Shown here piece by piece: positions 7,860-35,484 of a stretch of DNA of 42,583 nucleotides. The stretch spans positions 1 to 42,583 of the forward strand of contig CAXTUK010000001.1 of the NCBI GenBank assembly GCA_964247395.1, written 5' to 3'. The stretch is from an uncultured Acetobacteraceae bacterium (GTDB lineage Bacteria; Pseudomonadota; Alphaproteobacteria; Acetobacterales; Acetobacteraceae). Position 1 is the stretch's first letter. Every line of letters starts with the position of its first letter. The notes beneath the pieces are model-generated. The model had not been told where the DNA came from. It saw only the letters and a program-made list of their open reading frames with translations, and made no database searches. Position numbers and translations under genes: made by a program.

Positions 7860-7918
7860 GTCCAGTGCCTCGCGCGCCGACCTTTGGCCGGCGGCGGCCA
7901 CGGAATGGCGCGAGCCGC

Positions 7919-8584
7919 TCAGGCCGCCAACCGGGGAACGCACCGGACCAGGAGATCCCTGAAGCCGACCCAGAGCGGCAGGACGCGGTCGTCCGGTCGC
8001 ATATGGCGGCTGAGCGCCCCATGACCCTGCTCGGGGTCGCTGTCGAACCTGACATGCTCGGACAGGAAATGCCGGAACGCGCGCAGCACGGCGTTGTCCC
8101 AGTCGGGCGCCGTCAGCATGGCCCTGAAGACGGTCTCCAATCCGCCATCCTCGTAGCTCGCGATGCTGTTGGCGCGTGTCGTCGCATCCAGCGACCGGGT
8201 GTCGTCGAGGTAGGCCTGTCCGGCGAACTCGAAGAACCTGGCCTTCTCCTCCTCGATCGGCAGAAGCGCCAGCGTGCGTCGCATGAACTCGTCATGGTTC
8301 ATCTTCTCGCCCGGCAGCGCCACGCCCGGCCATGGCGATAGATTGCTGGTGTCGCATTCCTCCTGCTCGAGCTGGCGGAGCTTCTCGTCGTGCGGGTGGA
8401 GGCTTCGCGCCACCTGCAGGCTTTCCCTGAACTGGACCGAGAAGTGGTAGTAGGCCCAGGCGGCGGCGACCATGTCGGTCGCTGTCGCCTCCCGCCAGTT
8501 CAGATCCCTGATCTCGTCGATGACCTGGGTGAATTCCAGTCTCTCGATGACGTCCACCGCACTCTCCATTTCCTGTTTGAACAT
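7919..8584 (-). CDS. Heme-oxygenase-like di-iron (HDO/CADD-like) protein, tentative
   Basis: 221 aa, all-alpha composition. By-eye alignment to the Chlamydia CADD ligand blocks: AWAYYHFSVQF (cf. DYYLHIKAF), LEQEEC...KMNHDEF (cf. MDEE..NHIDLW), ASYEDG (cf. YSYESQ), FLSEHVRFDSDPEQGHG (cf. FTEHEEADVRHA). The ATG directly abuts the upstream stop (8585-8587). Confidence 0.55.
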   Translation of the reverse strand: MFKQEMESAVDVIERLEFTQVIDEIRDLNWREATATDMVAAAWAYYHFSVQFRESLQVARSLHPHDEKLRQLEQEECDTSNLSPWPGVALPGEKMNHDEFMRRTLALLPIEEEKARFFEFAGQAYLDDTRSLDATTRANSIASYEDGGLETVFRAMLTAPDWDNAVLRAFRHFLSEHVRFDSDPEQGHGALSRHMRPDDRVLPLWVGFRDLLVRCVPRLAA

Positions 8585-10018
8585 TCAGTCGCCGATCCGG
8601 CTTCTGCCGATTTCCATCAGCAGACCAACCAGATCCAGGACATCCCGGGCCGAGGTCCGGCCGTTCGTGATGCACATCCGCACGACGTCACGGCCGCGAA
8701 ACCCGGCGCAGGAGACCCAGGCCCGGCCCGACGCGACAATGTCAGCGGCAATCGATCTCGCGTCGCGATATCCCGCCGGAGGAACCGCGCAGACGACCGC
8801 CATGCAGGACCGGTTCACGACCGTCCAGCCGCGCGCCGTCAACTCCAGCTTCAGCAGCTCTGCGAGATCGATCGCGCGTTCGAGGTGGTCGGCGTAGCCT
8901 CGCCAGCCGGCCACCGCCAGCGCCACGAACAACCGCAAGCCGAGAAAGCGCCGCGACCATTGCGTCGACACCATGTAAGGGTCATGCGCCTCGGTCGATG
9001 GCATGAAGCCAGCCTTCGTATGGAACGCCTCGGCGAGCACGCTGGCGTGTCGTGCGATGAACATGCCGCACGACATCGTCGTCGCGAACCATTTGTGGGC
9101 GTCGACCGTGACCGAGTCTGCATCCTCGATGCCAGAGAGCTCGGGAAGCAGCCGATCCGACGCGAGCAGCGAACCGCCCCAGGCCGCATCGACATGAAAC
9201 CAGAGTTTCCGGGCGCGAGCGATCTCGCCCAGATCGCGGAGCGGGTCGACCATCCCCGCGTTCGTCGTTCCCGCCGTGCCCACGATCATGATCGGAAAAC
9301 ACCCGTGCGCGACATCGGCGTCGATCGTCGCCGCCAGCGCTCCGCTGTCCATGCAGCCCGCATCGTCGCAACTGACCGTGGTCACCGACCCTCGCCCGAG
9401 CCCGGACTGATGCGCCGCCTTGAACCAGGCGAGGTGCGCGTCTTCGGAGACGTAGATCCTCGGCGATCCGTCGAACGCCCTCGCTCCTCGCGAGGCAAAG
9501 CCAGGATGAGCCCTGGTCATCGCGCAGACGAGCGCGGTGAAGTTCGCCTCCGACCCTCCGGTCGTGAAATGGCCGTTCGCGCCGGCCGGCATGCCTGCCC
9601 TGTCCGCGATGGCGCGGATCACGTGCGCCTCGATCGCAACCGGAACCGGCGACGTCGTGGCGCTTGCAAGCTGCGGATTGAAGGAGGCGACGATCCGCTC
9701 CGCGCATTCCGCCGGGAAGGCCGGTGCGGGATTGAACAGGCCGAAATACCGTGGGTGCGTCACCTGGACGATGCCGTGTTCGAGCTGATCGACCGTCCAG
9801 GCGAGCACATCCCGTAGCGCTCGCCTCGACGAGAAGTCGAAGCCTACGAGGTCCGATCGGAACCGAGCGAGTTCGACGGCGGCGCTCACGCGGCCGTCCG
9901 GAATCCGGCCCGACGCTTCGTCGAGCATCGCGTCGAGAAGGCGATTGACGCAATCGCGCTCCTGCGCCGAGGGAAACAGCGGCGCGATCAGCGCGGCCCG
10001 AGGCTCGCTTACGTTCAC
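8585..10018 (-). CDS. Group II (fold-type I) pyridoxal-phosphate-dependent amino-acid decarboxylase
   Basis: Motifs HFTTGGSEANFTAL, GTAGTTNAGMVDPL, HVDAAWGG and the PLP-lysine motif SVTVDAHKWF. Start re-assigned to GTG at 10016-10018, overlapping the metA-like stop (GTGA). The 24 upstream codons of the track ORF overlap metA. Confidence 0.85.
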   Translation of the reverse strand: MNVSEPRAALIAPLFPSAQERDCVNRLLDAMLDEASGRIPDGRVSAAVELARFRSDLVGFDFSSRRALRDVLAWTVDQLEHGIVQVTHPRYFGLFNPAPAFPAECAERIVASFNPQLASATTSPVPVAIEAHVIRAIADRAGMPAGANGHFTTGGSEANFTALVCAMTRAHPGFASRGARAFDGSPRIYVSEDAHLAWFKAAHQSGLGRGSVTTVSCDDAGCMDSGALAATIDADVAHGCFPIMIVGTAGTTNAGMVDPLRDLGEIARARKLWFHVDAAWGGSLLASDRLLPELSGIEDADSVTVDAHKWFATTMSCGMFIARHASVLAEAFHTKAGFMPSTEAHDPYMVSTQWSRRFLGLRLFVALAVAGWRGYADHLERAIDLAELLKLELTARGWTVVNRSCMAVVCAVPPAGYRDARSIAADIVASGRAWVSCAGFRGRDVVRMCITNGRTSARDVLDLVGLLMEIGRSRIGD

Positions 10019-11019
10019 GGCGCCAGGACCGGTATCGCGCCGGCATCCGCGAGCCACGCCGTATCGACGCGCGACGGATACGCATGGCACGCAGCGGCCC
10101 GTCGAGACCGGACCGTGTCGAGCCAGTTGGCGAACAACGCGACTGCCCAGGGTTTCGGCGCATCCGCCAGCCGCACGTCATCAAGGACGCCGAGCACTTC
10201 CACCAGCACCGCCTGCTCACGCTTGCCCGACCCTTCCTCCCGCAATGCGCCGAGCGCGGCCGCGGTCGGACCATCGAAGAGGTTGTCCGGCAACTCCGGG
10301 TAGTCACCCCTCTCGCCGAGGAAGAAGCGGCGCGCGTCCCTCCTGTACTCGGAGATCAGACACTCCGAATCGTATTCCGGGTGACCCTGCAGGAACAGGA
10401 ATTGTGCTCCGGTCTCCTTGGCGAAGATGTCCACTCCGCGCCCGACCGTCCTCGACACGATCTCGTAGCCGCACCCGGCAAGCTCCTGTTCGGCCAAGTC
10501 ATGATAGCGGGAGTGCGGGCTCTGCCATCGGTTCGGCAAGCCGGCGCTCAGGCGATGCCCGGACGCGACCAGACGCGATTCGAACAGTCCCGACGCCTTG
10601 GTCTCGAAACGACGCCGCGCCAGACCGTCCAGGTGCAGCACCGCCGCATGAGCGGCGAGACACGAGAAGATCGTCGGCACCGAATGGCTCTCGGCCCAGT
10701 CGATGATCGCCGTCAAACGCGGCCAGACCGGCTCATCGGACAGTCGCGCCGTGACAGGTTCCATACCGGTCAGGATCAGACCCTCGATCCCGGAATCGAA
10801 CAACTCGTCCGCATCGCGGTAGCCGTCCGCGCCGGCGCGTGCCGGGACAGCATCCAGTTCCCGACACCGGAACAGCTCGAGCCGGACGCCGGCGGGCGAG
10901 GCGCGGCCCAGCAGGTCGCGAAAGCATCGTTCCGTATTGCGCAAGGCGCGGCCGGATGTGTTGTTGACCAATCCGATGATCGGCCGATCCGTCGTGCGCG
11001 GTCGCGTCTGCCGGTTCAT
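10015..11019 (-). CDS. metA: MetA-family homoserine O-acyl(succinyl/acetyl)transferase, divergent N-terminus
   Basis: By-eye alignment to E. coli MetA: IEGLILTGMEP, catalytic-Cys block PTIFSCLAAHAA, PHSRYHD, His/Glu block FLQGHPEYD, and LFANWLD. The E. coli LNLMPKK block is replaced by GLVNNTSG. ATGA overlap with the metY-like stop. Confidence 0.8.
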   Translation of the reverse strand: MNRQTRPRTTDRPIIGLVNNTSGRALRNTERCFRDLLGRASPAGVRLELFRCRELDAVPARAGADGYRDADELFDSGIEGLILTGMEPVTARLSDEPVWPRLTAIIDWAESHSVPTIFSCLAAHAAVLHLDGLARRRFETKASGLFESRLVASGHRLSAGLPNRWQSPHSRYHDLAEQELAGCGYEIVSRTVGRGVDIFAKETGAQFLFLQGHPEYDSECLISEYRRDARRFFLGERGDYPELPDNLFDGPTAAALGALREEGSGKREQAVLVEVLGVLDDVRLADAPKPWAVALFANWLDTVRSRRAAACHAYPSRVDTAWLADAGAIPVLAP

Positions 11020-12350
11020 CGAGCGGCCGTCATCAGGTTCTCGTCGGTCTCACGCGCGGGTGCTGCCGCCTGACGGCCGACGGCGATGCCGAGCGCCCGA
11101 TCGAGATCGGCGACAATGTCGTCGACATGCTCGATGCCGATGCTCAACCGGATCATGTCCGCGGTCACGCCGGCCTTTCCCTGCTCGTCGGCCGACATCT
11201 GCCGGTGCGTGGTCGAGGCCGGGTGGCAGGCAAGCGACTTCGAATCACCCAGGTTGACGACCCTCTTGACCAGGCGCAGCGCGTCGTAGAACCGCACGCC
11301 GGCCGCAAAGCCGCCTTCGATGCCGAAGGCCATCAGCGAGCAGGGCCGGCCGCCAAGGTATTTCCCGACCAGCCCATGGTAGCGGTTGTCCCGGAACCCG
11401 GCATAGTTGACCCACGCGACGCGCGGGTCCCGGGCGAGGAAGTCCGCGATCCGTCGGGCATTCTCGACATGACGGTCGATCCGCACCGCGACCGTCTCGA
11501 TCCCCTGCAGCAACAGGAACGCATTGAAGGGCGACAGGGCGCTTCCGGTGGTGCGTAGGAAGACGCTGCGGCAGCGGGCGATGTAGGCCGCCGGCCCGAA
11601 ATGGTCGTTGTAGACCAGGCCGTGATAGGAACGGTCCGGCTCGCTGAACATCGGGAACTTCCCGGCCGTCGCCGCCCAGGGAAACTTGCCGCTATCGACG
11701 ATGGCGCCACCGAGCGTCGTTCCATGCCCGCCGAGGAACTTGGTCAGCGAGTGGACGACGATGTCGGCGCCGAATTCGATGGGCCGCGACAACATCGGCG
11801 TCGCCACGGTGTTGTCGACGATGAGCGGCACGCCGTGCCGGTGCGCCACGTCGGCCAGGGCCTCGATGTCGGCCACGTTCCCCGCCGGATTGCCGACCGT
11901 CTCGCAGAACACCGCGCGCGTTTGCGGATCGATCATCTTCTCGATGTCGACCGCGCCGTCGCTCCTGGCGAACTTGACGGTCACGCCCTGACTGGGGAAC
12001 AGGTGAGCGAAAAGCGAATGGGTGGTGCCGTAGAGCTGCGGGACGGAGACGACGTTCGTCCCGGGACTGACGACGTTGGCGACGGCGTAGTGCAGCGCAG
12101 ACTGACCGGACGCCACCACCAGCGCTTCGATCCCGCCCTCGAGTGCGCACACGCGCGCTTCCAGCACCGCGTTCGTCGGATTGCTGATCCGGCTGTAGCG
12201 ATGACCGTCCGTTTCCAGGTTGAACAGTGCCGCCGCATGCTCGGCGCTGTCGAATTCGTAGGCGACGGTCTGATGGATCGGTACCGCTAACGATCGCGTC
12301 GTCGCGTCTTTGTCGAAGCCGGCGTGGAGCGCGATCGTCTCGTTACGCAT
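11016..12350 (-). CDS. metY: O-acetyl/O-succinyl-homoserine sulfhydrylase family PLP enzyme (MetY/MetZ/CGS gamma-replacement fold)
   Basis: Motifs MRNETIALHAGF, YSRISNPT, PLIVDNTVATP, PLP-Lys block VVHSLTKFLGGHG, and NLGDSKSLACHPASTTH. 444 aa. Confidence 0.85.
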   Translation of the reverse strand: MRNETIALHAGFDKDATTRSLAVPIHQTVAYEFDSAEHAAALFNLETDGHRYSRISNPTNAVLEARVCALEGGIEALVVASGQSALHYAVANVVSPGTNVVSVPQLYGTTHSLFAHLFPSQGVTVKFARSDGAVDIEKMIDPQTRAVFCETVGNPAGNVADIEALADVAHRHGVPLIVDNTVATPMLSRPIEFGADIVVHSLTKFLGGHGTTLGGAIVDSGKFPWAATAGKFPMFSEPDRSYHGLVYNDHFGPAAYIARCRSVFLRTTGSALSPFNAFLLLQGIETVAVRIDRHVENARRIADFLARDPRVAWVNYAGFRDNRYHGLVGKYLGGRPCSLMAFGIEGGFAAGVRFYDALRLVKRVVNLGDSKSLACHPASTTHRQMSADEQGKAGVTADMIRLSIGIEHVDDIVADLDRALGIAVGRQAAAPARETDENLMTAAR

Positions 12351-12508
12351 AGGAGGCTGAACCCTGCCTGGCCGCCCTCGATCCGCCCATGACCGAACCG
12401 GTCTTCACGATCGCTGGTGTGACGGTATTTTGGACATGTTTGTCGTTATGCGACAATTAACCCGTTTGGACGCGGTCAAATGGTCTGCATCTTGCCCGTC
12501 CAGTGGGA
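12351..12508 (-). promoter_or_regulatory. AT-richer intergenic leader upstream of the metY-like sub-operon (probable internal promoter/operator)
   Basis: This is the only sizeable gap (158 nt) in the 4.9-19.5 kb minus-strand gene string. GC is visibly lower here, and it contains the 6-5-6 palindrome TTGTCGttatgCGACAA at 12440-12456. No consensus -35/-10 could be assigned. Confidence 0.35.
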
Positions 12509-13243
12509 TCAGGCCGTGTTCCCGGCGTCCACCGTCATCACGGTGCCGGTGATGTTCCGGGCCTTGTCGCTGAAGAGATAGTCCACGAGGTGCGCCACGT
12601 CGTCGATCTCGGGCATCCGTCGCAGCGCACTGCGCCGCTTGATCTTCTCCCGCTCCTCCGACGTGAGACTGTCGGTCATGTCAGTGTCGAGAAAACCGGG
12701 CGCCACGACGTTCACGGTGATCCCGAGCGGCCCGAGTTCGCGCGCCAGCGACCGCGTGAACCCGATCAGCGACGCCTTCGTCGCGCTGTATGCGGACATC
12801 CCGCTGTAACCGGTCGAACTCACGATGGACGAGATGTTCACGATGCGCCCGCCGGCTTGCCCGAGCATCGAACGCACCACGTGCCGCGTCAGGATCAACG
12901 GGGCCAGCGTGTTCAGCCGCACGAGGCTCTCGATCTCGCGGTCGGGCATGTTGGCGAGCACGCCGGCCGTGCCGAGGCCGGCATTGTTGACCAACCCGTA
13001 GATCGGACCGTGCGTCGCCTTCAGCGTCTTCACCAGGCCGGGCAAGCCGCCGGTGTCGGCCAGGTCGAAAGCCTTGAAATGCAACCTGCCTAGCGGCACG
13101 CCTTCGAGCTCCTGCCTCGCCGTCGTGAGTATCTCGCTGTCGCGGCGGGCGACCGCCACGACGTTGAAGCCGGACAACGCCAGCCTCCGCGCGATGCCGA
13201 GTCCGAGGCCCCGGCTGCCGCCGGTCACCAGCACATTACGCAA
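12509..13243 (-). CDS. Short-chain dehydrogenase/reductase, FabG (3-oxoacyl-carrier-protein reductase)-like
   Basis: Motifs VLVTGGSRGLG, NNAG, catalytic YSATK, and PGFLDTDM. Start re-assigned to TTG 13241-13243 (GGAG 7 nt upstream) or GTG 13232-13234. The longer track ORF overlaps the ligase gene. Confidence 0.85.
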   Translation of the reverse strand: MRNVLVTGGSRGLGLGIARRLALSGFNVVAVARRDSEILTTARQELEGVPLGRLHFKAFDLADTGGLPGLVKTLKATHGPIYGLVNNAGLGTAGVLANMPDREIESLVRLNTLAPLILTRHVVRSMLGQAGGRIVNISSIVSSTGYSGMSAYSATKASLIGFTRSLARELGPLGITVNVVAPGFLDTDMTDSLTSEEREKIKRRSALRRMPEIDDVAHLVDYLFSDKARNITGTVMTVDAGNTA

Positions 13244-14627
13244 GCGCGCGCTCCATCTTTCCCGACGGCGCGATCCCGAGACAGGCGACCTGTTCGATGA
13301 TTGCCGGCACTTCGTGGGCGGCGAGACTTCGCCGGCACAGATGCCGGACCTCGTCGCTGATCGCCGCCGGGTCGAGAACTCCGACATGGATGTCCTTGAG
13401 GACATATTCGGCGATTACGAGCGCGCCGGTGATCGGGCTTCGCCGTCCAGAGACCCGGGACATGAGAACCGCTTCGTGCTGGTTGATCACCGCCTCGACC
13501 GTTTCCGGACTGACCTTGCGTCCGCCGACATTGATCACCCCGCCGCGGCGCCCGGAAAAAAAGCATCGCCCGTCGCGGATCTCGATCAGGTCGCCGGTGT
13601 CGACGAAACCCCGCTCATCGGCGAGCTTCGGCATGTCCGCTCCAAGATAGCCCGTCGCGGCGCGGGGAGAGCGGATGCGCAGAGATCCGTCCTCGATGGC
13701 GAGATCGACGCCCTCGCCGCGGTATCCGATCAACGAGACCGGAAAGCCCGCTCGGCCGTCGCGAACGTCGAACGCGATGCCGGCTTCGGTGGAGGCGAAC
13801 GCATGTGCGATCTCGGCATCGGGGAAGGTGCGACGTAGGCCGTCCAGGATGGCCTGATCGGCGGCCTCTCCGGACAGTCGCAGATAGCGCGGCGACATCT
13901 TCGAGAGCGCGTCGCTCATCAGCGCTCGCCGCCAATGCGTGGGCGTGCCCGAAATGTGCGTGACACCGGACCTGCCCGCGCGAGCCAGGAAGTCGGACGC
14001 AGGTTCGCCATCGCCGGACAGGACGAGCGACCCGCCGCCAACCAGGGCCCGGATGAGGATCTGCAGTCCCCCGTAGCGGCGGACGTCGTAGAACGTGCTC
14101 CACACCTTGTGGTCGCCGGCGACCGCATCGGCGAGCGGTCCCGAGAGGCTCGAGAATGTATGCATGGCCAGCTTCGGAGATCCGGTCGAGCCGGACGTGA
14201 ACAGCACCCATTCGGTGTCGACGTCGCGTGCGATGGCGTCGGACATGGCGTCGAGCCGGTCGCTGCACGCCACCAGCTCCGCACGAAGCTGTCCGAACTC
14301 GGACATGTCGCCGTCGGTCAGGATGATCTCGCATGCCGCATCGGTCGCGGCTTGCGTCAGCTGGTTGCGCGTGATGCCAGGCGGACGGATCACTAATCGC
14401 GCGGCGATGCCGTCGAGGGCGGCCAGGGCGCAGATCGTCGGCATCTGCCTTGCCGTGGACAACATCACCGATTGGTCGCGGAACTCTTCGAGCGGCCGTC
14501 CAAGTCCGGATCCATCGGCGACCTCGTGCACCGCCAGCCGCATCTGCGCGTCGGCCACGAAGCTCTCGGGCCTGTCCGCCCGCGCGACCATCCGGTCCCG
14601 GAGCGAAGCGATCCTACGCGGCCGCAT
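13236..14627 (-). CDS. ANL-superfamily adenylating ligase (DltA-role / acyl-carrier-protein ligase candidate)
   Basis: Motifs WVLFTSGSTGSPK, AFASTEAG, FVDTGDL, GRRGGVINVGGRKVSPETVE and the C-terminal APSGK. Start is ATG 14625-14627 (14-nt overlap with the ACP) or ATG 14589-14591. Confidence 0.8.
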   Translation of the reverse strand: MRPRRIASLRDRMVARADRPESFVADAQMRLAVHEVADGSGLGRPLEEFRDQSVMLSTARQMPTICALAALDGIAARLVIRPPGITRNQLTQAATDAACEIILTDGDMSEFGQLRAELVACSDRLDAMSDAIARDVDTEWVLFTSGSTGSPKLAMHTFSSLSGPLADAVAGDHKVWSTFYDVRRYGGLQILIRALVGGGSLVLSGDGEPASDFLARAGRSGVTHISGTPTHWRRALMSDALSKMSPRYLRLSGEAADQAILDGLRRTFPDAEIAHAFASTEAGIAFDVRDGRAGFPVSLIGYRGEGVDLAIEDGSLRIRSPRAATGYLGADMPKLADERGFVDTGDLIEIRDGRCFFSGRRGGVINVGGRKVSPETVEAVINQHEAVLMSRVSGRRSPITGALVIAEYVLKDIHVGVLDPAAISDEVRHLCRRSLAAHEVPAIIEQVACLGIAPSGKMERALA

Positions 14628-14874
14628 CTTCGTATAGCCTGATGAAATCGCCAACCGTGACCGGGAATGCGACATCTTCGCCGGTCGAGAACGGATCAAG
14701 GTCCAACCGGTCATCCAGGCTCGCGACGATCACCGCGATGCAGAGCGAGTCCAGACCCGAATCGAGCAGACGAAGCTGATCGGACAAGGGTGCCAGACGC
14801 TTGTCCTGCTGCTCGGCGACACGGACGATCTCGCCCAGCACGATCGAGCGTATGGGGGTTGTCGGATTTTCCAA
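14614..14874 (-). CDS. Acyl/peptidyl carrier protein (phosphopantetheine attachment LDSGLDSLC)
   Basis: 4-helix-bundle-sized ORF with a DSL serine motif. I prefer the second in-frame TTG (14872-14874) because GGAGG lies 5 nt upstream. The track start at 14898 is also a TTG. Confidence 0.7.
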   Translation of the reverse strand: MENPTTPIRSIVLGEIVRVAEQQDKRLAPLSDQLRLLDSGLDSLCIAVIVASLDDRLDLDPFSTGEDVAFPVTVGDFIRLYEDAAA

Positions 14875-14894
14875 TTGGGCCTCCTGGGTCGGAA

Positions 14895-16544
14895 TCAACG
14901 AGAGGGTTCGTGGGCGCCGTCGGACGTCGTCGCCTGAAGGAAGCCGATCATTTGTCGGGCGGCGATCTCCCGCATCGGGCCGGTCGTCAGATCATGATCC
15001 AGTTCGTGGCTGACGCAGCGATGCATCCCGGGAAACGTCAGGAGCTCCTTGCCGGCTTCGCCGAAATGCCGGTCGAGAGCATCGAGGCCGGCGTCGCCGC
15101 CGCCGAACAGGAGCAGCGTCCTCACCCCACGCTCGGCGAGGTTTCGCATCCCGCGCCGCGCAGCGCTCCCCGGCCCCGGCCGGTCGACGCGAAGCGAGAA
15201 GCAGGGAAGATTGACCAGCAGCAAGTCGCTCACCCGCGTCTCGGCGAGCGCACCCTGCCACGCGTGATACGCACCCGAGCACAAGCCGTTCAGGGCGAAC
15301 CGGCGGAACCCTTGCCGCTCGAGTTCGTCGAGAGACGCTGCGATATCCGGTGTTCTGTCGACGGTGAAGACGTGGTTGCAGTCCTCGATCCCGTTCGAGG
15401 CGGCGGCCTCGCTGTCGCCGAGTCCGGCGAAATCGAACCTGAACGAGCAGATCCCGGCACCCGCCAAGCGTCTCGCGAACTCGACGGAAAATCGCGCGAA
15501 TCCGTGATGCGGGTCGCCGCCCGTGTTGGCGATCAGCACCACGCGGTCGCTGGCTGCGTCTCGTGGCCGGCACAGCATCCCGAACAATCGGCGTCGCTGT
15601 CCGAAAGGAACTGGAATTTCGACGCAATCCGCCGGACGTAAGGTGCGAGCAGGCAGCGTCGAGCGCGCCATGCGCCTCGTCACCACCGGCGCCAGGCGGT
15701 CTCGCAGCCAGGACAGGATCGGTTGCAGGTCGGCGGAGGGCTCGTCGGCCAGGTGGCTCGGCCGAAGGAAGCCTTCGAGACCGCTGAACGGCAGGCACGT
15801 GACGTCCGCGCCGCCGTCGCGCCAAGCCTTCCTGCATGCCGACAGGAGCGGCGACTCATACTGCGTGAACAGCGACACATGATCCGCGCCGGGTCGGACC
15901 TGCCGCAGGTCGAGTTCCGACAGTCTCTCCACCGTCTCGGCGGAGAGACTCAGTTCATTGAGTGTCACGCCACCCTCCGGCCGCGTCTCGACCGACGCCC
16001 GAAGCCGTGACTCGACGCTCAGCTGCGAGATGAACGATCGGCCGCGAAGCACCGGCTCCAGCATCACCAGACCCCGGACATCGTCCCTCGCGGCGGCGAC
16101 GATCGCGGCGAGCGTGGCGCCGAGCCTGAGCCCGACGAGAACCAGACTTTCCGCACCGCTCACGCGCCGCAGCCAGTCCGCGGCGGCCTGCACGTTGCCC
16201 TGCCAAGCCTCCCAGCATTCAGCGCCGTCGAGCTCGAGCGAGTCGCCGGTGCCCTCGTAGTCGAACCGCAGCGTCGGGTAGCCTTGCGCACCCAGCCCGT
16301 TCGCCAGTAATCGGAACTGCCGATGCGCGTTGCTCGCATCGCGACCGACGCCGGAGCACAGGACCACCGCGACATCCCCGGTCACAACATCCGTTGCCGG
16401 GTGATACCAACCGAAGCAGCCACCGAACGACACCGGCTCCATGCGCGGCATAATCGGGCGGATCGCGTCTGCCTCGTCTTGTTCGGGCAGACTCCGGAAG
16501 CCACCCGACACGTTCGCATTTCGGCTATCGGCGACGGTTGTCAT
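14895..16544 (-). CDS. Fusion of two alpha/beta-hydrolase-fold domains (non-canonical nucleophile elbows)
   Basis: 549 aa with two repeats of the pattern: VVLxxxG..., then F(D/R)FxGxGDS, then an elbow. Elbow 1 is VGLRLGA (Arg at the nucleophile position, codon 16125-16127). Elbow 2 is NGLCSGA (Cys, codon 15279-15281). Confidence 0.7.
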   Translation of the reverse strand: MTTVADSRNANVSGGFRSLPEQDEADAIRPIMPRMEPVSFGGCFGWYHPATDVVTGDVAVVLCSGVGRDASNAHRQFRLLANGLGAQGYPTLRFDYEGTGDSLELDGAECWEAWQGNVQAAADWLRRVSGAESLVLVGLRLGATLAAIVAAARDDVRGLVMLEPVLRGRSFISQLSVESRLRASVETRPEGGVTLNELSLSAETVERLSELDLRQVRPGADHVSLFTQYESPLLSACRKAWRDGGADVTCLPFSGLEGFLRPSHLADEPSADLQPILSWLRDRLAPVVTRRMARSTLPARTLRPADCVEIPVPFGQRRRLFGMLCRPRDAASDRVVLIANTGGDPHHGFARFSVEFARRLAGAGICSFRFDFAGLGDSEAAASNGIEDCNHVFTVDRTPDIAASLDELERQGFRRFALNGLCSGAYHAWQGALAETRVSDLLLVNLPCFSLRVDRPGPGSAARRGMRNLAERGVRTLLLFGGGDAGLDALDRHFGEAGKELLTFPGMHRCVSHELDHDLTTGPMREIAARQMIGFLQATTSDGAHEPSR

Positions 16545-16550
16545 GCCGGT

Positions 16551-17669
16551 CTATCCGATGTGACCGCAGCGATCCGCCAGCGCGGCCGGGTTCCTGCCGG
16601 CGAGTTCCGCTCGCAACCACTCGCCAAGTTCGCGGCTGTATGCCTCGGCGCCGTTCGCGTTGAAGTGCCAGGCATCGCCGAAGAACCTGTCCGGCCAGCA
16701 CGGGACCGCAGGCCCGACGACCCGGGTTCCATGAAAGCGCATGGAGGTCGCGCGGAGATAGTTGGCGACCTGCTCACCGACGCGTTTGGGAACGCGGTCA
16801 TAGCTGGCCTGATTGATCGGCATCGCCAACAGCAGGACCGGCACGCCGCGCTTGGCGAGCAGGCCGAGCGTCCGCGAGAGATAGAGATCGATCAACGGCG
16901 ATATCGACGCGTTGCCGGCCTTGACCTCCGTCGTGAGCTCGCTGGAGCCCGACGCCGTTCCGAACAGCGCGTGGCCGGAGGCGGACAGGCAGTCATGCAG
17001 GGCGCGCCGATTGTGCGCCCATCGGGCGGCGAGCCCGGCATTGACCAGGCTGTCGAAATAGAATCCCGGAAACCGGACCGCAAACAACAGATCGCGCACC
17101 ATCGGAGGAAGCTGGTCGCCTCGCCGCAACCGCTGGAGTTCGCGGTCGTGCAGGCGGCCCGCGTCGTCGTCGACCAGCCGCATGGCTCGCAGGCCGAGGA
17201 AACCTGTCCGGGCGCCGAAATTCCAGTAGTCCGGATCGGCGGTGAATTTGAGCGGGCCATGGGCGATGACGACGAGACGCGGCGGCGTCGGGCACCGCAG
17301 CGCACGGGACACCGCGAAGTAGGTCTCGATCGGACTGGTCCCGGACAGGGCGAAGTTCTTCACGGCGACCGGCATCACTCTCGGATCGATCGCGGCCAGC
17401 GTCCGGCTGTCGCCGAACACGGCGACGGAGCCGAGCTGACAGGCATCGAGCATCGTCCGTTTGGCGACCCAGAGCGGATAATCCCGGCTGAGGAAGGCCA
17501 TCGGTGCCGCCGCGACATAGATCCACGCCAGACCAAACAGGGCAACGAACGTGACGCCGAGCCACTCGAGGAAGCCCGGCGTCGCCCATCTGGTGGACCG
17601 GATCGAGCGAGCCGGCCGAGCCGTTTCGTCCTGATCCCCGGCGACCCGCAGCATGGTGGCATCGATCAT
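16551..17669 (-). CDS. Membrane-anchored SGNH-hydrolase-like protein (DltD/AlgJ-role O-acyltransferase candidate)
   Basis: N-terminal TM helix FLEWLGVTFVALFGLAWIYVAAAP, block I VAVFGDSRT (GDS) and C-terminal block V GDAWHFN (DxxH). Positioned directly after the MBOAT gene. Confidence 0.6.
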   Translation of the reverse strand: MIDATMLRVAGDQDETARPARSIRSTRWATPGFLEWLGVTFVALFGLAWIYVAAAPMAFLSRDYPLWVAKRTMLDACQLGSVAVFGDSRTLAAIDPRVMPVAVKNFALSGTSPIETYFAVSRALRCPTPPRLVVIAHGPLKFTADPDYWNFGARTGFLGLRAMRLVDDDAGRLHDRELQRLRRGDQLPPMVRDLLFAVRFPGFYFDSLVNAGLAARWAHNRRALHDCLSASGHALFGTASGSSELTTEVKAGNASISPLIDLYLSRTLGLLAKRGVPVLLLAMPINQASYDRVPKRVGEQVANYLRATSMRFHGTRVVGPAVPCWPDRFFGDAWHFNANGAEAYSRELGEWLRAELAGRNPAALADRCGHIG

Positions 17670-17682
17670 CGCGCGCGTCCGC

Positions 17683-19245
17683 TCAGAACCTGAAATAGAG
17701 GAACTCGCTGGTTCCCCCGATCGCCAGGACGCCCAGGCAACCCATCGCGCCGATCACCATCGCCGAGGGCAGGTCCGGCCGCCAGACGAGGCGTTGCAGG
17801 CGGCCGGCCTGCACCTGGCCGATCGCCGGATGGAACAGACGCATCATCTGCTGGGTGTTCGGCATTCCCCAGACGATCGAGTACAGAACGGCAACCCAGA
17901 GGACATGGCAGGCCAGCGCGATGGAGGCGGCGTCCGGAGCGCCGCCCAGGATGTGGGCCGGGAGACCGACCGGGCCCATTCCATGCAGCCCGATCATGCC
18001 GGCCAGGAGGTCCAGGGCGTCCGGGACCGACGCTGCACGAAAGAACACCATCGCGACCACGGTTGCGATGTAGGTCAGCAGGACGTTGCCGGCACGGACC
18101 GACCAGCCCGCATCCGCGCTGCCCCGGCGGCGGCGCAGGATGCGAAACGCGTGATTGGTCGTGAGATAGATTCCGTGCAGGGCCCCGAAGACGAGGAACT
18201 GCAGCCCTGCGCCGTGCCAGACGCCAGCCAAGGTCATGGTCAGGATCGTCGGAAACGCGACCATGGTCGCGAACCCCGACGACGTGGCCTGCGCCGCCCT
18301 GGTGATACCAAGCCCGTTGCGGGCGCGCCACCTCGTGATCGCCATGGCCATCGGGCCATACACGTACGACGCGAGGTAACGCGACAACGTCATGTGCCAT
18401 CGCTGCCAGTGCTCGATGATCGAGGCCGCCTTGTAGGGGGAGTCGAAGTTCAGCGGGAACTTGACGTTGAACATCCGGGCCAGGCCGATCGCCATGTCGG
18501 AGTAGCCGGAGAAGTCGAAATAGATCTGCAACGAGAAGCAGAGCGCGGCGTTCCAGGCGGCAAGTAGCGGCAGATGCCCCGCGTCCCCGAAGCCGGCGCG
18601 GACGACCGGTGCAAGCGGGTCCGCAAGCAGGCATTTCTTCGCGAGCCCGATCGCGAAGATCGACAGCCCGACCGAGAAATCCTCGCGAGAGAACCGCCAG
18701 GTCCGCCGGTCGGCGAACTGCGGCATGATCTCCTGGTGATGCAGGATCGGACCTGCGATCAGGTGCGGGAAGAACGTCACGAACAGGACGTAATCCAGCG
18801 GGCTGCGGTCCTCGTTCAAGCCCTGCATCCTGTCCACCAGGTAGCCGATCTGCGTGAACGTGAAGAACGAGATCCCGAGCGGCAGGACGAGATCGGGCAG
18901 CGTCGCGTGGATCAGCCCGAGCCCGGTCAGCGCATGCACGACGCTCACCAGATACTTGAAGGCGAACAGTGCGGCGAGATTGACCGAGATCGCGCCGGCC
19001 AGGCAGGTTGCCTGCAAGCGAGGCCGAGATCGAACCGCTCCGATCAGTTCCGCCGACCCGTAGTTGAAGGCGATGGAAGCGCCCAGCAGAACCAGCGACG
19101 AGGGATTCCACCAGCCATAGAAGACCAGCGATGCCAAGACCAGCCAGGAAGCCGCCGCCACCCTTCCGCTGCGGCAGCACAGACGAAAGCCCACCAGGAC
19201 GCACGGCATGAAGAGGAAGATGAAAACGTAGGAGTTGAACAGCAT
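17683..19245 (-). CDS. MBOAT-family membrane-bound O-acyltransferase (AlgI/DltB type) with extra C-terminal TM helix ending in FLYFRF
   Basis: MLFNSYVFIFLF N-terminus, GISFFTFTQIGYLVD, FPHLIAGPI, YFDFSGYSDMAIGLARMFN, and the catalytic-His block IIEHWQRWHMTLS. 520 aa. Confidence 0.9.
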   Translation of the reverse strand: MLFNSYVFIFLFMPCVLVGFRLCCRSGRVAAASWLVLASLVFYGWWNPSSLVLLGASIAFNYGSAELIGAVRSRPRLQATCLAGAISVNLAALFAFKYLVSVVHALTGLGLIHATLPDLVLPLGISFFTFTQIGYLVDRMQGLNEDRSPLDYVLFVTFFPHLIAGPILHHQEIMPQFADRRTWRFSREDFSVGLSIFAIGLAKKCLLADPLAPVVRAGFGDAGHLPLLAAWNAALCFSLQIYFDFSGYSDMAIGLARMFNVKFPLNFDSPYKAASIIEHWQRWHMTLSRYLASYVYGPMAMAITRWRARNGLGITRAAQATSSGFATMVAFPTILTMTLAGVWHGAGLQFLVFGALHGIYLTTNHAFRILRRRRGSADAGWSVRAGNVLLTYIATVVAMVFFRAASVPDALDLLAGMIGLHGMGPVGLPAHILGGAPDAASIALACHVLWVAVLYSIVWGMPNTQQMMRLFHPAIGQVQAGRLQRLVWRPDLPSAMVIGAMGCLGVLAIGGTSEFLYFRF

Positions 19246-19260
19246 CGGCCGGGGAATACC

Positions 19261-19527
19261 CTAGCGCGCAGCCACGGAGGATCTCTCCTCGATCAGCCTC
19301 ACGAGTTCTCCGACGTCGCTCAATCGGCCCAGCTCGCCCGACCGTAAATGGATGCCGAACGCCTGCTCCGCCTCCACCGTGAAGGAGACTTGAGTCAGCG
19401 AATCCCAGCCGCGCAACTCATTCATCGGCGTGTCCGGCCGCACTGCCAACCGCGGCACGTCCAGGACCTCCTGAAGTATGGTCTCGACCCGGCTCAGAAC
19501 GGCCTGCTTCATGATGAGGAGATCCAT
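19261..19527 (-). CDS. Carrier protein (DltC-role candidate), Ser attachment motif GWDSLTQV
   Basis: 88-aa ORF (83 aa if it starts at the second ATG, 19512) immediately upstream of the MBOAT gene, with a 15-nt gap. It has the WDSL motif and the acidic helix pattern of PP-binding proteins. Confidence 0.7.
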   Translation of the reverse strand: MDLLIMKQAVLSRVETILQEVLDVPRLAVRPDTPMNELRGWDSLTQVSFTVEAEQAFGIHLRSGELGRLSDVGELVRLIEERSSVAAR

Positions 19528-19774
19528 TCGACGACGCGCGTGACCATCGCCCTGCGGCTCGGGACGCCCGGGGCAAGTCGTGAACCTACAATCCCGCGCC
19601 GAAAATCAGAATCATCAGAAAGGTCAGGGTTGAGTGAAGCGAGGCCGAAGCGCCGCTGACCGGGATGTCGGCGATCAGCCTTTCGGCCAAGCCCAAACAT
19701 CGAGCTTACCATTCGGCGACAAACGACTAACGTCTGGCCCGCGGACTGGCGCGGGCGCAACAGGGAGGCTCCTG
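19528..19774. promoter_or_regulatory. Divergent intergenic region (carrier/MBOAT operon leftward, GT4 genes rightward) with nested inverted repeats
   Basis: 247-nt gap. GCCGAAA (19598-19604) pairs with TTTCGGC (19681-19687), and GGTCAG (19622-19627) pairs with CTGACC (19656-19661). The distal ~100 nt are homologous to the leader of the second GT4 copy. GGGAGG RBS at 19763-19768. Confidence 0.35.
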
Positions 19775-22294
19775 ATGAAGATCGCTCTGATCCATGAGTG
19801 GTTCGTCACCTACGCAGGTTCCGAGAAGGTGCTCGAAGCCATCATGTCGGAGTATCCCCAGGCCGACATTTTCTGCCTGATCAACGATCTGCCGGACGAG
19901 CATCGTCACCGCTTTTCGGGTCGGTCGATCAGGACCTCGTTCCTGCAGCGCATCCCGTTCATCAGGAGATGCTATCGCTACGCCCTCTCGCTGATGCCGC
20001 TCGCGGTCGAGCAGTTCGATCTGTCCGGTTACGACCTGATCATCAGCAACTGCCACGCGGTCGCCAAGGGAGTGATCACCGGGCCCGACCAGCTGCATAT
20101 CTGCTACTGCTACACGCCGATGCGCTACGCGTGGGACCTGCAGTGCCAATACCTCGATGAATCCGGCCTGAAGAGTGGGTTGCGAAGTCTTGTTGCCCGA
20201 TGGCAGCTGCACCACGTCAGGATGTGGGACTATCGAGCGGCGCAGAGCGTCGATTACTTCATCTCCTGCTCGGCCTACATCGCTCGACGCATCCATACCG
20301 CCTACCGGCGCGAGTCGTCGGTGATCCACCCCAACGTCGCCGTCGAGGACTTCGTCATCGGTGGCGTCCGGGAGGATTTCTACCTGACGTCGTCGCGAAT
20401 GGTGCCCTACAAGAAAATCCATCTCATCATCCAGGCCTTCGCCGCCATGCCGGACAGACGGCTCGTCGTCATCGGCGCCGGTCCGCAGTTCGAGCGCTGC
20501 AAGGCGCTGGCTGGCCCGAACGTCGCCATGATGGGCTACCAGTCGCACGCGGTGCTGCTGTCGCACATGCAACGGGCGCGGGCCTTCATCTTCGCCGCCG
20601 AGGAGGATTTCGGCATCACCCCCGTCGAGGCGCAGGCCTGCGGCACACCGATCCTGGCCTACGCCCGCGGCGGCTCGGCGGAAACCGTGATCGACGGCGT
20701 CACCGGCCTGCATTTCCATCAGCAGACGCCGCTCGCCATCGAAGCCGTCGTCCGGGACTTCGAAGCCATCGAGGACCAGTTCGACCCGGAGACCATACGG
20801 TCCCACAGCCTCCGGTTCTCGACCGAGCGCTTCCGCCGCGAGATCAGGGCCTTCGTCGATGCGAGATGGACCGAGCACCGCCATCGTCTCGATCCGCCGC
20901 GCAAACGTCTCCTATTTCCGGAACTGCTCCTATCCACGCCAGCCGACGTCGCCGGAGAAGCGCATGTCCTCACGGTGTGAGGCACGCGCCCGACGCGGGC
21001 ACCGGTCGGCGGGGCCGGAATGAGGAAGGGCGGCCGCCTCACGCCCGAAAAATCAGCCTTTCGGTCAAGCTCGAACATCGACCTTACGACGAAGCGGCGA
21101 ACGACTACCGTCGGCAATATCGCGACCTGGCGCGGACGCAAGTTGGAGGCTCCTGATGAAGATCGCGCTGATCCATGAATGGCTCGTGACCTACGCAGGC
21201 TCCGAGAAGGTGCTCGAGGCCATCATGTCGGAATACCCCCAGGCCGATATCTTCTGCCTGATCGACGATCTGCCGAAGGAGCATCGTCATCGCTTTTCGG
21301 GCCGGTCGATCAAGACCTCCTTCCTGCAGCGCATTCCCTTCCTGGCGAAGTTCTACCGCTACACTCTCTTCTTGATGCCTCTGGCCGTCGAGCAGTTCGA
21401 TCTGTCCGGCTACGACCTGATCATCAGCAACTGCCACGCGGTCGCCAAGGGAGTGATCACCGGGCCCGACCAGCTGCATATCTGCTACTGCTACACGCCG
21501 ATGCGCTACGCGTGGGACCTGCAGTGCCAATACCTCGATGAATCCGGCCTGAAGAGTGGGTTGCGAAGTCTTGTTGCCCGATGGCAGCTGCACCACGTCA
21601 GGATGTGGGACTATCGAGCGGCGCAGAGCGTCGATTACTTCATCTCCTGCTCGGCCTACATCGCTCGACGCATCCATACCGCCTACCGGCGCGAGTCGTC
21701 GGTGATCCACCCCAACGTCGCCGTCGAGGACTTCGTCATCGGTGGCGTCCGGGAGGATTTCTACCTGACGTCGTCGCGAATGGTGCCCTACAAGAAAATC
21801 CATCTCATCATCCAGGCCTTCGCCGCCATGCCGGACAGACGGCTCGTCGTCATCGGCGCCGGTCCGCAGTTCGAGCGCTGCAAGGCGCTGGCTGGCCCGA
21901 ACGTCGCCATGATGGGCTACCAGTCGCACGCGGTGCTGCTGTCGCACATGCAACGGGCGCGGGCCTTCATCTTCGCCGCCGAGGAGGATTTCGGCATCAC
22001 CCCCGTCGAGGCGCAGGCCTGCGGCACACCGATCCTGGCCTACGCCCGCGGCGGCTCGGCGGAAACCGTGATCGACGGCGTCACCGGCCTGCATTTCCAT
22101 CAGCAGACGCCGCTCGCCATCGAAGCCGTCGTCCGGGACTTCGAAGCCATCGAGGACCAGTTCGACCCGGAGACCATACGGTCCCACAGCCTCCGGTTCT
22201 CGACCGAGCGCTTCCGCCGCGAGATCAGGGCCTTCGTCGATGCGAGATGGACCGAGCACCGCCATCGTCTCGATCCGCCGCGCAAACGTCTCCT
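19674..22294 (+). repeat. Tandem duplication, unit about 1381 bp (leader + GT4 gene), with an apparently 100%-identical 884-bp core (20030-20913 = 21411-22294)
   Basis: Compared by eye and through the ORF track. Three forward frames and the antisense frame give identical peptides across the core. The last 5' difference is T20029 vs C21410, and divergence resumes at 20914/22295. Confidence 0.9.
19775..20980 (+). CDS. Family-4 (GT-B, group 1) glycosyltransferase, tandem copy A
   Basis: [24 protein letters not shown]-terminus and the E-x7-E region [23 protein letters not shown]. The ATG at 19775 follows GGGAGG. The upstream part of track ORF 19634.. is rejected. Confidence 0.85.
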   Translation: MKIALIHEWFVTYAGSEKVLEAIMSEYPQADIFCLINDLPDEHRHRFSGRSIRTSFLQRIPFIRRCYRYALSLMPLAVEQFDLSGYDLIISNCHAVAKGVITGPDQLHICYCYTPMRYAWDLQCQYLDESGLKSGLRSLVARWQLHHVRMWDYRAAQSVDYFISCSAYIARRIHTAYRRESSVIHPNVAVEDFVIGGVREDFYLTSSRMVPYKKIHLIIQAFAAMPDRRLVVIGAGPQFERCKALAGPNVAMMGYQSHAVLLSHMQRARAFIFAAEEDFGITPVEAQACGTPILAYARGGSAETVIDGVTGLHFHQQTPLAIEAVVRDFEAIEDQFDPETIRSHSLRFSTERFRREIRAFVDARWTEHRHRLDPPRKRLLFPELLLSTPADVAGEAHVLTV

Positions 22295-22361
22295 GCCACT
22301 GGAGTTGCTCGGTCCGCTTTCCGACGAAATCAATGAAGAAGCAGGCGTCCTCACAGCATGA
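21156..22361 (+). CDS. Family-4 glycosyltransferase, tandem copy B
   Basis: 401 aa. Identical to copy A through the central/C-terminal core and diverged at the first ~85 and last ~22 residues. Its stop overlaps the gmd start (ATGA 22358-22361). Confidence 0.85.
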
Positions 22362-23446
22362 AACGCGCGCTCATCACCGGCATCCTGGGCCAGGACGGGG
22401 CCTATCTGGCCCGGCTCCTGCTCCAGAAGGGCTATCGCGTCTTCGGATCCTACAGGAGATCGAGCTCGCACGATCCATGGCGTCTGGATCATCTCGGGAT
22501 TGCCGATCACCCGAACCTCGTTCTCGTGGTCAGCGACGTGACCGACGCCTGCTCCTGCATCAGGTTGCTCGAAGCGAGCGAACCGGACGAAGTCTACAAT
22601 TTCGCCGCCCAGAGCTTTGTTGCCGTCTCCTTCGACCAGCCGCACGTCACGACCCAGACCGACGCGATCGGCGCCTTGAATCTGCTGGAGGCGATCAGGG
22701 CCGTCGATCGCTCGATCCGGTTCTACCAGGCCTCATCGGCCGAGATGTTCGGACTGGTCCAGAGCGTGCCCCAGACCGAAGCGACCGCTTTCCATCCGAG
22801 AAGCCCCTACGCCGTCGCGAAGCTCTACGCCCATTGGATGGCGGTGAACTACCGCGAATCATACGGCATCTTCGCGAGTTCCGGCATCCTGTTCAATCAT
22901 GAGTCCCCTCTGCGCGGCATGGAGTTCGTCACCCGGAAGATCACTGACGCCGCCGCGCGCATCGCGCTGGGCGAAGACCTGTTGCTGGAACTGGGCAATC
23001 TGTGCGCGCTTCGCGACTGGGGCTACGCGGAGGAATATGTCGAAGGGATGTGGCGCATGCTGCAGGCGGAGGAACCCGACACCTTCGTCCTGGCGACCGG
23101 GAGGACGGTCTCAGTACGCGACTTCACGAGCATGGCATTCGCGCATGTCGGACTTGATCTCACCTGGCACGGCAGCGGCCTCGACGAACACGCCACCGGC
23201 GGCCGGGGTCGGCGGGAGATAGTTCGGGTCTCACCCCGCTTTCATCGCCCGGCCGACGTCGACGCCCTCGTCGGCGACTATTCGAGGGCGGAACGTGCGC
23301 TCGGCTGGCAGCCAAGCACGACCCTGCCCGAACTCTGCGCCTTGATGGTCGACGCGGATCTCCAACGTCACCGGCGGAAATCATCCCTTCCCAGAACCGC
23401 GACGCTCCGGCGAACGGTCTCGTGCCGATCGGTGGCGGGGGCGTAA
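22358..23446 (+). CDS. gmd: GDP-mannose 4,6-dehydratase, paralog 1
   Basis: Motifs [46 protein letters not shown], and [21 protein letters not shown]. It has a ~20-aa C-terminal tail beyond the paralog-2 end, and this tail overlaps the convergent GT4 gene. Confidence 0.9.

Positions 23447-34479: not shown

Positions 34480-35483
<1,004 letters not shown>

Positions 35484-35484
<1 letters not shown>

Follow-up and report, generated by a model that had tools for sequence, protein, structure and literature searches.

Positions 1 to 42,583 of contig CAXTUK010000001.1 (assembly GCA_964247395.1), from an uncultured Acetobacteraceae bacterium and referred to as the window throughout, carry on the minus strand a gene for a long MBOAT acyltransferase that ends in FLYFRF, a hexapeptide of the FxYxxF acyl-shuttle type. 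This gene lies in an operon in the order acyl carrier protein (ACP) ACP1, MBOAT, DltD-like SGNH protein, double alpha/beta-hydrolase, ACP2, AMP-forming ligase and FabG-like reductase (Table 1), with the ACP1 gene on the same strand ending 15 nucleotides (nt) ahead of the MBOAT start codon, and the DltD-like gene starting 13 nt past the MBOAT stop codon. Around this operon, the window forms an exopolysaccharide locus of the Wzx/Wzy type, in which genes for Wzx, Wzy-like, Wzc-like and WbaP-like proteins, glycosyltransferases of the GT4 family and GDP-mannose dehydratases were found. Here, we analysed the MBOAT tail, its neighbours and their homologs, and propose that the three proteins ACP1, MBOAT and DltD-like SGNH enzyme would constitute an acyl relay toward the exopolysaccharide.

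Reading of the minus strand gave the codons TTC CTC TAT TTC AGG TTC (17703-17686) followed by the TGA stop (17685-17683), i.e. F-L-Y-F-R-F-stop, so that the hexapeptide lies exactly where a preliminary description of this DNA had placed it. The MBOAT reading frame was backed by a GC content at third codon positions (GC3) of 0.87, by homology over the full length, and by an N-terminus, MLFNSYVF, that agrees with the family consensus; a wrong frame or start was excluded by the GC3 value and this N-terminus. When the window was translated in six frames (85,166 positions), the pattern F.Y..F occurred only once, and among 1,090 stop-terminated tails only that of the MBOAT fitted it, the same tail being the sole fit to the relaxed pattern [FYWLIVM].Y..[FYW] as well. 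Outside MBOAT genes, the background frequency was 4 in 51,981 tails, as counted over 1.2 Mb of related loci. A hexapeptide produced by chance, or by an annotation artefact such as a wrong frame or stop codon, could appeal to nothing except the shortness of the motif, and is refuted by the single occurrence, the low background and the GC3 value, together with the full-length homology and the conservation across phyla described below, which leave this explanation practically no probability. The last 36 residues of the MBOAT, compared by sequence with the PDB, matched nothing there.

The tail was found to be conserved wherever homologs were collected. The consensus F-[LIV]-Y-[FY]-x-F stood at the C-terminus of all 120 best database homologs (52-66% identity), and the FxYxxF motif at that of 83 out of 84 MBOATs in genomic loci at 35-55% identity and of 137 among the 150 best representatives of 50%-identity clusters. 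The remaining representatives were fragments or had frameshifted tails, apart from two variants ending in FVYFKI and two longer proteins that are fusions. The 84 loci came from many phyla, including Proteobacteria, Acidobacteriota, Verrucomicrobiota, Cyanobacteria, Paenibacillus, Planctomycetota, Campylobacterota and others, and thus the motif is kept across phyla over a range of 35-66% identity. In an alignment of 49 homologs, E514, F515, Y517, F518 and F520 were invariant, while the transmembrane helix just upstream varied freely. Conservation of the hexapeptide at the extreme C-terminus, and its co-variation with the absence of dltX, were among the checks that the preliminary description had named, and both came out on its side: a small DltX-like open reading frame (ORF), which it had reported as missing, was found neither in the window, when the tails in all six frames were searched for F.Y..F and the relaxed pattern, nor beside the fused-motif MBOATs of the 84 loci.

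Some homologs depart from this layout. In the lone exception among the 84 loci (L080, from a metagenome-assembled genome of an uncultured gammaproteobacterium), the MBOAT ORF stops early and the motif lies in a shifted frame, where the last helix and SSFLYFQF are encoded in a separate 48-codon frame; this arrangement could come from a frameshift or an error in sequencing, but could also be split naturally, the small frame then resembling a DltX-like microprotein. In two longer proteins, P0266 (844 amino acids, aa) and P0301 (617 aa), the MBOAT runs past the shuttle position into a further transmembrane helix and additional C-terminal sequence, which is a GDSL/DltD-like domain in P0266 and has no Pfam match in P0301. 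P0301 has its motif inside the chain (FNYINF at residue 476), so the shuttle may be able to work without a free C-terminus.

The body of the protein resembles DltB. A phmmer match to DltB 6BUG (E 8.6e-24) paired H284 with the histidine of RWHM and H344 with that of WHG, so that His284 (codon 18394-18396) and the catalytic His344 (codon 18214-18216), both invariant in the 49 homologs, correspond to the catalytic His289 and His336 of DltB. The AlphaFold2 model (mean predicted local distance difference test, pLDDT, 85.3; predicted TM-score, pTM, 0.86) had DltB 6BUG and 8JEM as its best Foldseek matches, with a target-normalised TM-score of 0.75. The protein is no DltB equivalog, however, as TIGR04091 scored 158.6 bits versus a cutoff of 375 and aligned to residues 36-402 only. 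Because this alignment ends at residue 402, about 118 residues extend beyond the DltB-like core, in accordance with the excess of about 100 aa over DltB-sized proteins given in the preliminary description. The latter had also counted one extra hydrophobic helix before the hexapeptide: the helix itself stands, as the hydrophobic stretch MVIGAMGCLGVLAIGG directly precedes the hexapeptide and was modelled as a helix at residues 492-507, but the number does not, since there are two transmembrane helices in the extension, at 437-460 and 492-507. The modelled helices following the WHG of His344 span residues 348-370, 381-403, 437-460 and 492-507, and hydropathy peaks in the extension were located at 440-458 and 492-510.

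The side of the membrane on which the tail lies was predicted by the density of Lys+Arg (K+R) per residue in the non-helical segments of the 49 homologs. This density alternated along the chain, with 0.00 at the N-terminus (outside), 0.27 in loop 25-27 (inside), 0.02 in loop 109-122 (outside), 0.25 in the loop following the His helix (inside), 0.022 in loop 404-436 (outside), 0.105 in loop 461-491 (inside) and 0.013 in the C-terminal tail (outside). From this alternation the tail is predicted to be periplasmic; a cytoplasmic tail, which would have spoken against a shuttle, is not what the values point to, that of the tail lying far below those of the two preceding cytoplasmic loops.

The gene following the MBOAT encodes a 372-aa protein that had no match in Pfam and NCBIfam scans of its own sequence. 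In a family alignment of 27 members, G86-D87-S88, D332 and H335 were invariant, representing SGNH blocks I and V, and an N-terminal transmembrane helix and conserved cysteines were present; weak Pfam matches to DUF1574, GDSL_2 and DltD appeared in some members (DltD in 3 of the 27). When the family profile was compared with the PDB, DltD was the only match (6O93, E 2.3e-4, and 6PFX), and for the AlphaFold2 model (pLDDT 85.3) the top six Foldseek matches were DltD structures (TM-score about 0.44), followed by other SGNH hydrolases. The invariant GDS and DxxH residues, the N-terminal helix, and the profile and fold matches to DltD thus identify the 372-aa protein, as far as sequence profiles and a predicted fold can, as a membrane-anchored DltD-like SGNH enzyme, and we propose it as the final transferase onto the polymer. 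As in other MBOATs of the fused-motif type, a putative SGNH transferase gene adjoins that of the MBOAT.

A fused motif of this kind has precedents. DltX carries FXYXXF (Anderson et al. 2025, PMC12148441), and in other bacterial MBOAT pathways, which are devoid of DltX, the same motif stands at the MBOAT C-terminus on two additional transmembrane helices (PMC12148441), a proposal that Anderson et al. in their account credit to Schultz et al. 2023. In PatA the two helices, with a peripheral segment on the cytoplasmic side between them, bring the motif back to the periplasmic face (helices alpha15-17), and in Campylobacter jejuni PatA Tyr445 of the motif is auto-acetylated, the modification being lost in the Y445F and H315A variants and assigned to the motif peptide by tandem mass spectrometry; an acetyl-Tyr FIYANF peptide is a competent donor to PatB, and the DltX Tyr is D-alanylated by DltB (all PMC12148441). 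The DltX motif reads FIYNEF in Lactiplantibacillus plantarum, and what the preliminary description had stated of the Dlt mechanism and of the FIYNEF hexapeptide agrees with the literature, while the motif FLYFGF of Streptococcus thermophilus DltX is identical to FLYFRF at five of six positions. The window MBOAT hence belongs with the long bacterial MBOATs that have the AlgI/PatA/WssH architecture and a fused shuttle; the fusion in cis is a published general and near-universal property of long bacterial MBOATs, and FLYFRF here is a new instance of it, not a discovery.

Among the characterised systems, PatA/PatB of C. jejuni and Neisseria gonorrhoeae shares with the locus a long MBOAT with two extra C-terminal transmembrane helices, an FxYxxF end (FIYANF in NgPatA), a catalytic His, no DltX, and a separate membrane-anchored SGNH partner encoded alongside, and for this pair the Tyr-ester relay has been demonstrated. 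Differences lie in the surroundings: PatA uses acetyl-CoA and no carrier protein, whereas an ACP gene is conserved directly upstream here; the partner resembles DltD/DUF1574 rather than PatB by profile and fold; and the genes stand in a Wzx/Wzy exopolysaccharide locus instead of a patAB-ape1 operon. With the Dlt pathway (DltA, DltB, DltC, DltD and DltX; D-alanylation of teichoic acids in Gram-positive bacteria) the locus shares an adenylating enzyme and a carrier protein encoded with the MBOAT, the DltB-like core, a DltD-like partner and, by analogy, presumably the same hexapeptide chemistry. Unlike in Dlt, the motif is fused to the MBOAT instead of being carried on a microprotein encoded by a dltX ORF, the ACP does not resemble DltC, the ligase is closer to acyl/aryl-CoA ligases than to DltA, and the host belongs to a Gram-negative family with exopolysaccharide as the probable target. 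A true Dlt operon was ruled out by the sub-cutoff score of the DltB model, the lack of DltX, and the lack of DltC- and DltA-type proteins.

Similarity extends to the alginate (AlgI/AlgJ/AlgF/AlgX) and cellulose (WssH/WssI) systems, which have an AlgI-type long MBOAT and acylate a secreted polysaccharide via periplasmic SGNH-like proteins; many homologs of the window MBOAT are labelled AlgI in their source records, and the fused motif has been reported for both systems (PMC12148441). The window differs from the alginate system in lacking homologs of AlgJ, AlgF and AlgX and in having a DltD-like partner, and the alginate donor is thought to be acetyl-CoA. AT3-SGNH enzymes of the OatA type offer a further parallel, since their membrane domain acylates an extracytoplasmic Tyr and the Ser of the SGNH domain then hands the acyl group on to the polymer (PMC12148441), but the AT3 fold is unrelated to MBOAT, the OatA Tyr is located on a loop, and the SGNH domain is in the same polypeptide.

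On these grounds we propose the following relay. An acyl thioester, most likely acyl-S-ACP1, would dock on the cytoplasmic face of the MBOAT; His344, at the bottom of a periplasm-facing funnel, would catalyse acyl transfer onto the Tyr517 hydroxyl of FLYFRF; the flexible tail would then swing to the DltD-like SGNH protein and acylate Ser88; and this enzyme would finally esterify the exopolysaccharide of the surrounding Wzx/Wzy locus. The covalent acyl-Tyr and acyl-Ser intermediates are inferred by homology with PatA/PatB and DltB/X/D. Motif conservation, the predicted periplasmic tail, the absence of dltX and the SGNH partner encoded just downstream all support a shuttle fused in cis and, with Tyr acylation taken over from its homologs, the Tyr-ester relay envisaged in the preliminary description. 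Counting against the relay, the topology comes from the positive-inside rule combined with homology, and residues 512-520 of the tail were modelled at a pLDDT below 50, insofar as the geometry of the tail rests on the model; such low values are also consistent with a mobile tail. Taken as a whole, we consider the relay highly probable, and the exopolysaccharide, by virtue of the surrounding locus, its rather probable acceptor.

Instead of carrying the acyl group covalently, the aromatic tail might be a structural element, either a plug of the periplasmic funnel or a docking peptide for the SGNH protein, with the acyl group passing directly to the partner or polymer. DltX's C-terminal peptide does bind DltD and DltE non-covalently with micromolar affinity, and an aromatic cluster in the DltB funnel has been proposed to bind the motif. 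A plug or docking role, however, would leave it unexplained that the residue is invariantly Tyr and not just aromatic, and it conflicts with the loss of auto-acetylation in CjPatA Y445F, the donation from acetyl-Tyr peptide to PatB and the reported acylation of the DltX Tyr (PMC12148441), so we regard a purely structural tail as very improbable.

As for the donor, the ACP, MBOAT and DltD-like genes formed a unit in 10 of the 11 closest loci, where the flanking genes differ, and in each of those ten the small gene directly upstream of the MBOAT gene aligned with ACP1 and kept the serine of W[DN]S. Four of these loci carry the same ligase module, and the module with the AMP-forming ligase is common to the window, L001, L082 and L087; in L085 (3321-5261) and L086 (3812-5725), it is replaced by an FkbH_N protein encoded directly upstream of the three-gene unit; and three of the closest three-gene loci have no loader gene nearby. 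Proteins of the FkbH family load glyceryl units onto ACPs, and their occurrence in L085 and L086 suggests the loading of another acyl unit onto the same relay there. Varying ACP-loading enzymes next to a conserved three-gene unit argue for an acyl-ACP donor, which, judging from synteny, would bear a non-amino-acid acyl group in this clade. Within the relay, we hold the ACP to be the probable donor, with less assurance than for the relay itself.

Alternatively, the relay would run unchanged but take its acyl group from acetyl-CoA or some other acyl-CoA, as PatA and AlgI do, with the carrier proteins, ligases and hydrolases building a different substituent or a lipid. This alternative gains from the long-chain acyl-CoA synthetase (6123-7943) in the same operon, which scored above its NCBIfam cutoff, and from those three-gene loci that have no nearby ligase, and it draws further on two of the three observations that weigh against an ACP as donor: fused-motif MBOAT/SGNH pathways are stated in general to use acyl-CoA and no carrier protein (PMC12148441), an ACP gene is missing next to the MBOAT in about 70 of the 84 diverse loci, and ACP1 is by its sequence not a DltC orthologue, as it fitted generic ACP models better than the DltC model (E 0.066) and its PDB relatives are ACPs, not DltC. 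Against an acyl-CoA donor, the ACP remains directly upstream of the MBOAT in the 10 of 11 closest loci amid changing surroundings and is preceded by alternative loaders, either an AMP-ligase or an FkbH_N protein, a pattern for which there is hardly an explanation other than that ACP and MBOAT work together; moreover, in Dlt an MBOAT is already known to accept a carrier-protein thioester (PMC12148441). An acyl-CoA donor is therefore judged unlikely.

An acyl-ACP donor departs from the published statement that fused-motif pathways are without carrier protein. That statement, an acyl-CoA donor with no dedicated carrier protein, is a generalisation in PMC12148441 and not a strict family definition, and it does not seem to hold for this locus, given the ACP gene 15 nt upstream and its recurrence in 10 of 11 loci. 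A literature search on ACP-dependent AlgI-like MBOATs, the exosortase-associated acyl module and the Bordetella dra locus, with Schultz et al. 2023 outside its range, found nothing specific. The conserved ACP coupling is the only part of the system able to add something new. More broadly, the ACP1-MBOAT-DltD-like unit may represent a modular, carrier-protein-fed exopolysaccharide acylation relay of Gram-negative bacteria that combines the donor side of Dlt with the cis-shuttle of PatA/AlgI and installs non-acetyl groups, such as hydroxyacyl or glyceryl-type ones, chosen by interchangeable loaders, these being the AMP-ligase and FabG-like reductase in the window and the FkbH-like proteins in other loci; we give this wider reading an even chance. 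If it is true, it contradicts the generalisation that fused-motif MBOATs draw only on acyl-CoA. With a carrier protein as donor, this clade would widen the use of the relay beyond acetylation and D-alanylation to further acyl groups on exopolysaccharides, and the three genes would serve as a signature by which to search genomes for such modifications.

Carrier and ligase genes also accompany MBOAT genes in other arrangements. In L004 and L006, an ACP and a ligase gene follow directly downstream of the MBOAT. L005 (5752-13151; Stenotrophomonas sp. LGBM10) holds, in this order, two AlgX-like genes, an MBOAT with FLYFQF, an ACP, an AMP-ligase, an AlgF-like protein and an acyl-CoA dehydrogenase, and is a more distant, alginate-type acylation cassette with carrier protein and ligase, which likewise counts in favour of an ACP donor.

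Table 1. Features of the MBOAT operon in the window
Feature	Coordinates	Strand	Remarks
ACP1, acyl carrier protein, 88 aa	19261..19527	minus	Pfam PP-binding E 2.1e-8; phosphopantetheine Ser in GWDSL
MBOAT acyltransferase, long AlgI/PatA type, 520 aa	17683..19245	minus	Pfam MBOAT PF03062, E 4.3e-19
C-terminal extension without DltB counterpart, residues 404-520	17686..18036	minus	periplasmic loop, transmembrane helix 437-460, cytoplasmic loop 461-491, transmembrane helix 492-507, tail (predicted)
FLYFRF, FxYxxF acyl-shuttle hexapeptide at the extreme C-terminus	17686..17703	minus	proposed acceptor Tyr517, codon TAT 17695-17697
DltD-like SGNH protein, membrane-anchored, 372 aa	16551..17669	minus	putative triad Ser88 (codon 17406-17408), Asp332, His335
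Double alpha/beta-hydrolase, 549 aa	14895..16544	minus	Pfam Hydrolase_4, Abhydrolase_1
ACP2, carrier-protein-like, 94 aa	14614..14898	minus	weak ACP match E 0.019; GLDSL; directly upstream of ligase
AMP-forming adenylating enzyme, ~463 aa	13236..14627	minus	Pfam AMP-binding E 8e-19
FabG-like short-chain dehydrogenase	12509..13243	minus	TIGR01830 3-oxoacyl-ACP reductase E 3e-61, from residue 58 of the long ORF

The genes downstream of the DltD-like gene recur in the related loci. The AMP-forming enzyme, proposed as the loader of a carrier protein, and the 549-aa hydrolase, which may act in acyl transfer or editing, are both syntenic in L001, L082 and L087; an 80-86 aa gene occupies the position equivalent to ACP2 in the same three loci, the one in L001 being a homolog of ACP2 (E 7e-38), and a 244-aa FabG-like homolog follows the ligase in L082 and L087. 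The nearest NCBIfam and PDB relatives of the ligase are acyl/aryl-CoA ligases (menE, benzoate-CoA ligase and 4-hydroxybutyrate-CoA ligase), not DltA. Two starts were placed downstream of those of the longest ORFs. The longest ORF of the ligase (13236-14714, minus) overlaps the preceding gene by about 100 nt and that of the FabG-like gene (12509-13405, minus) by about 170 nt; judged by synteny with L082 and L087, the ligase more likely begins at the Met at 14627 and the FabG-like product near 13243. Promoter and terminator scans of 12000-20200 gave background levels only and were uninformative on operon structure.

The N-terminal half of the 549-aa protein is like TIGR03101 and its C-terminal half like TIGR03100, both below cutoff, and these halves resemble the separate 'hydrolase 2' and 'hydrolase 1' of exosortase A systems; the window ligases also weakly match the exosortase-associated ligase model. 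Membership in an XrtA/PEP-CTERM module (TIGR03098, TIGR03100 and TIGR03101) was rejected, as the ligase model scored 65-101 bits versus a cutoff of 592 and the hydrolase models about 93 bits versus cutoffs of 168 and 203. No exosortase was found among the window ORFs scanned, which were a part of the total.

Beyond the FabG-like reductase, the operon continues with genes for a MetY-like pyridoxal phosphate (PLP) enzyme, a MetA-like acyltransferase, a PLP decarboxylase, a 221-aa protein with no family match, and the long-chain acyl-CoA synthetase. This part (6123-12350, minus) comprises an O-acetylhomoserine sulfhydrylase (MetY-like), a homoserine O-acyltransferase (MetA-like) and a PLP enzyme like diaminobutyrate decarboxylase, and these three genes recur in L001 and L082, L087 being cut off at the MetY-like gene. 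Taken together, they suggest that an unusual substituent, homoserine-derived or an amine, is made.

Elsewhere in the polysaccharide locus, two tandem GT4 glycosyltransferase genes (19775-20980 and 21156-22361, plus) encode proteins that are 95% identical, with all differences lying close to the N-terminus or within about 20 residues of the C-terminal end, so that the pair looks like a recent tandem duplication or is possibly an assembly artefact. The same locus encodes two paralogs of GDP-mannose 4,6-dehydratase (22358-23446 and 34507-35484, plus), which are 57% identical.

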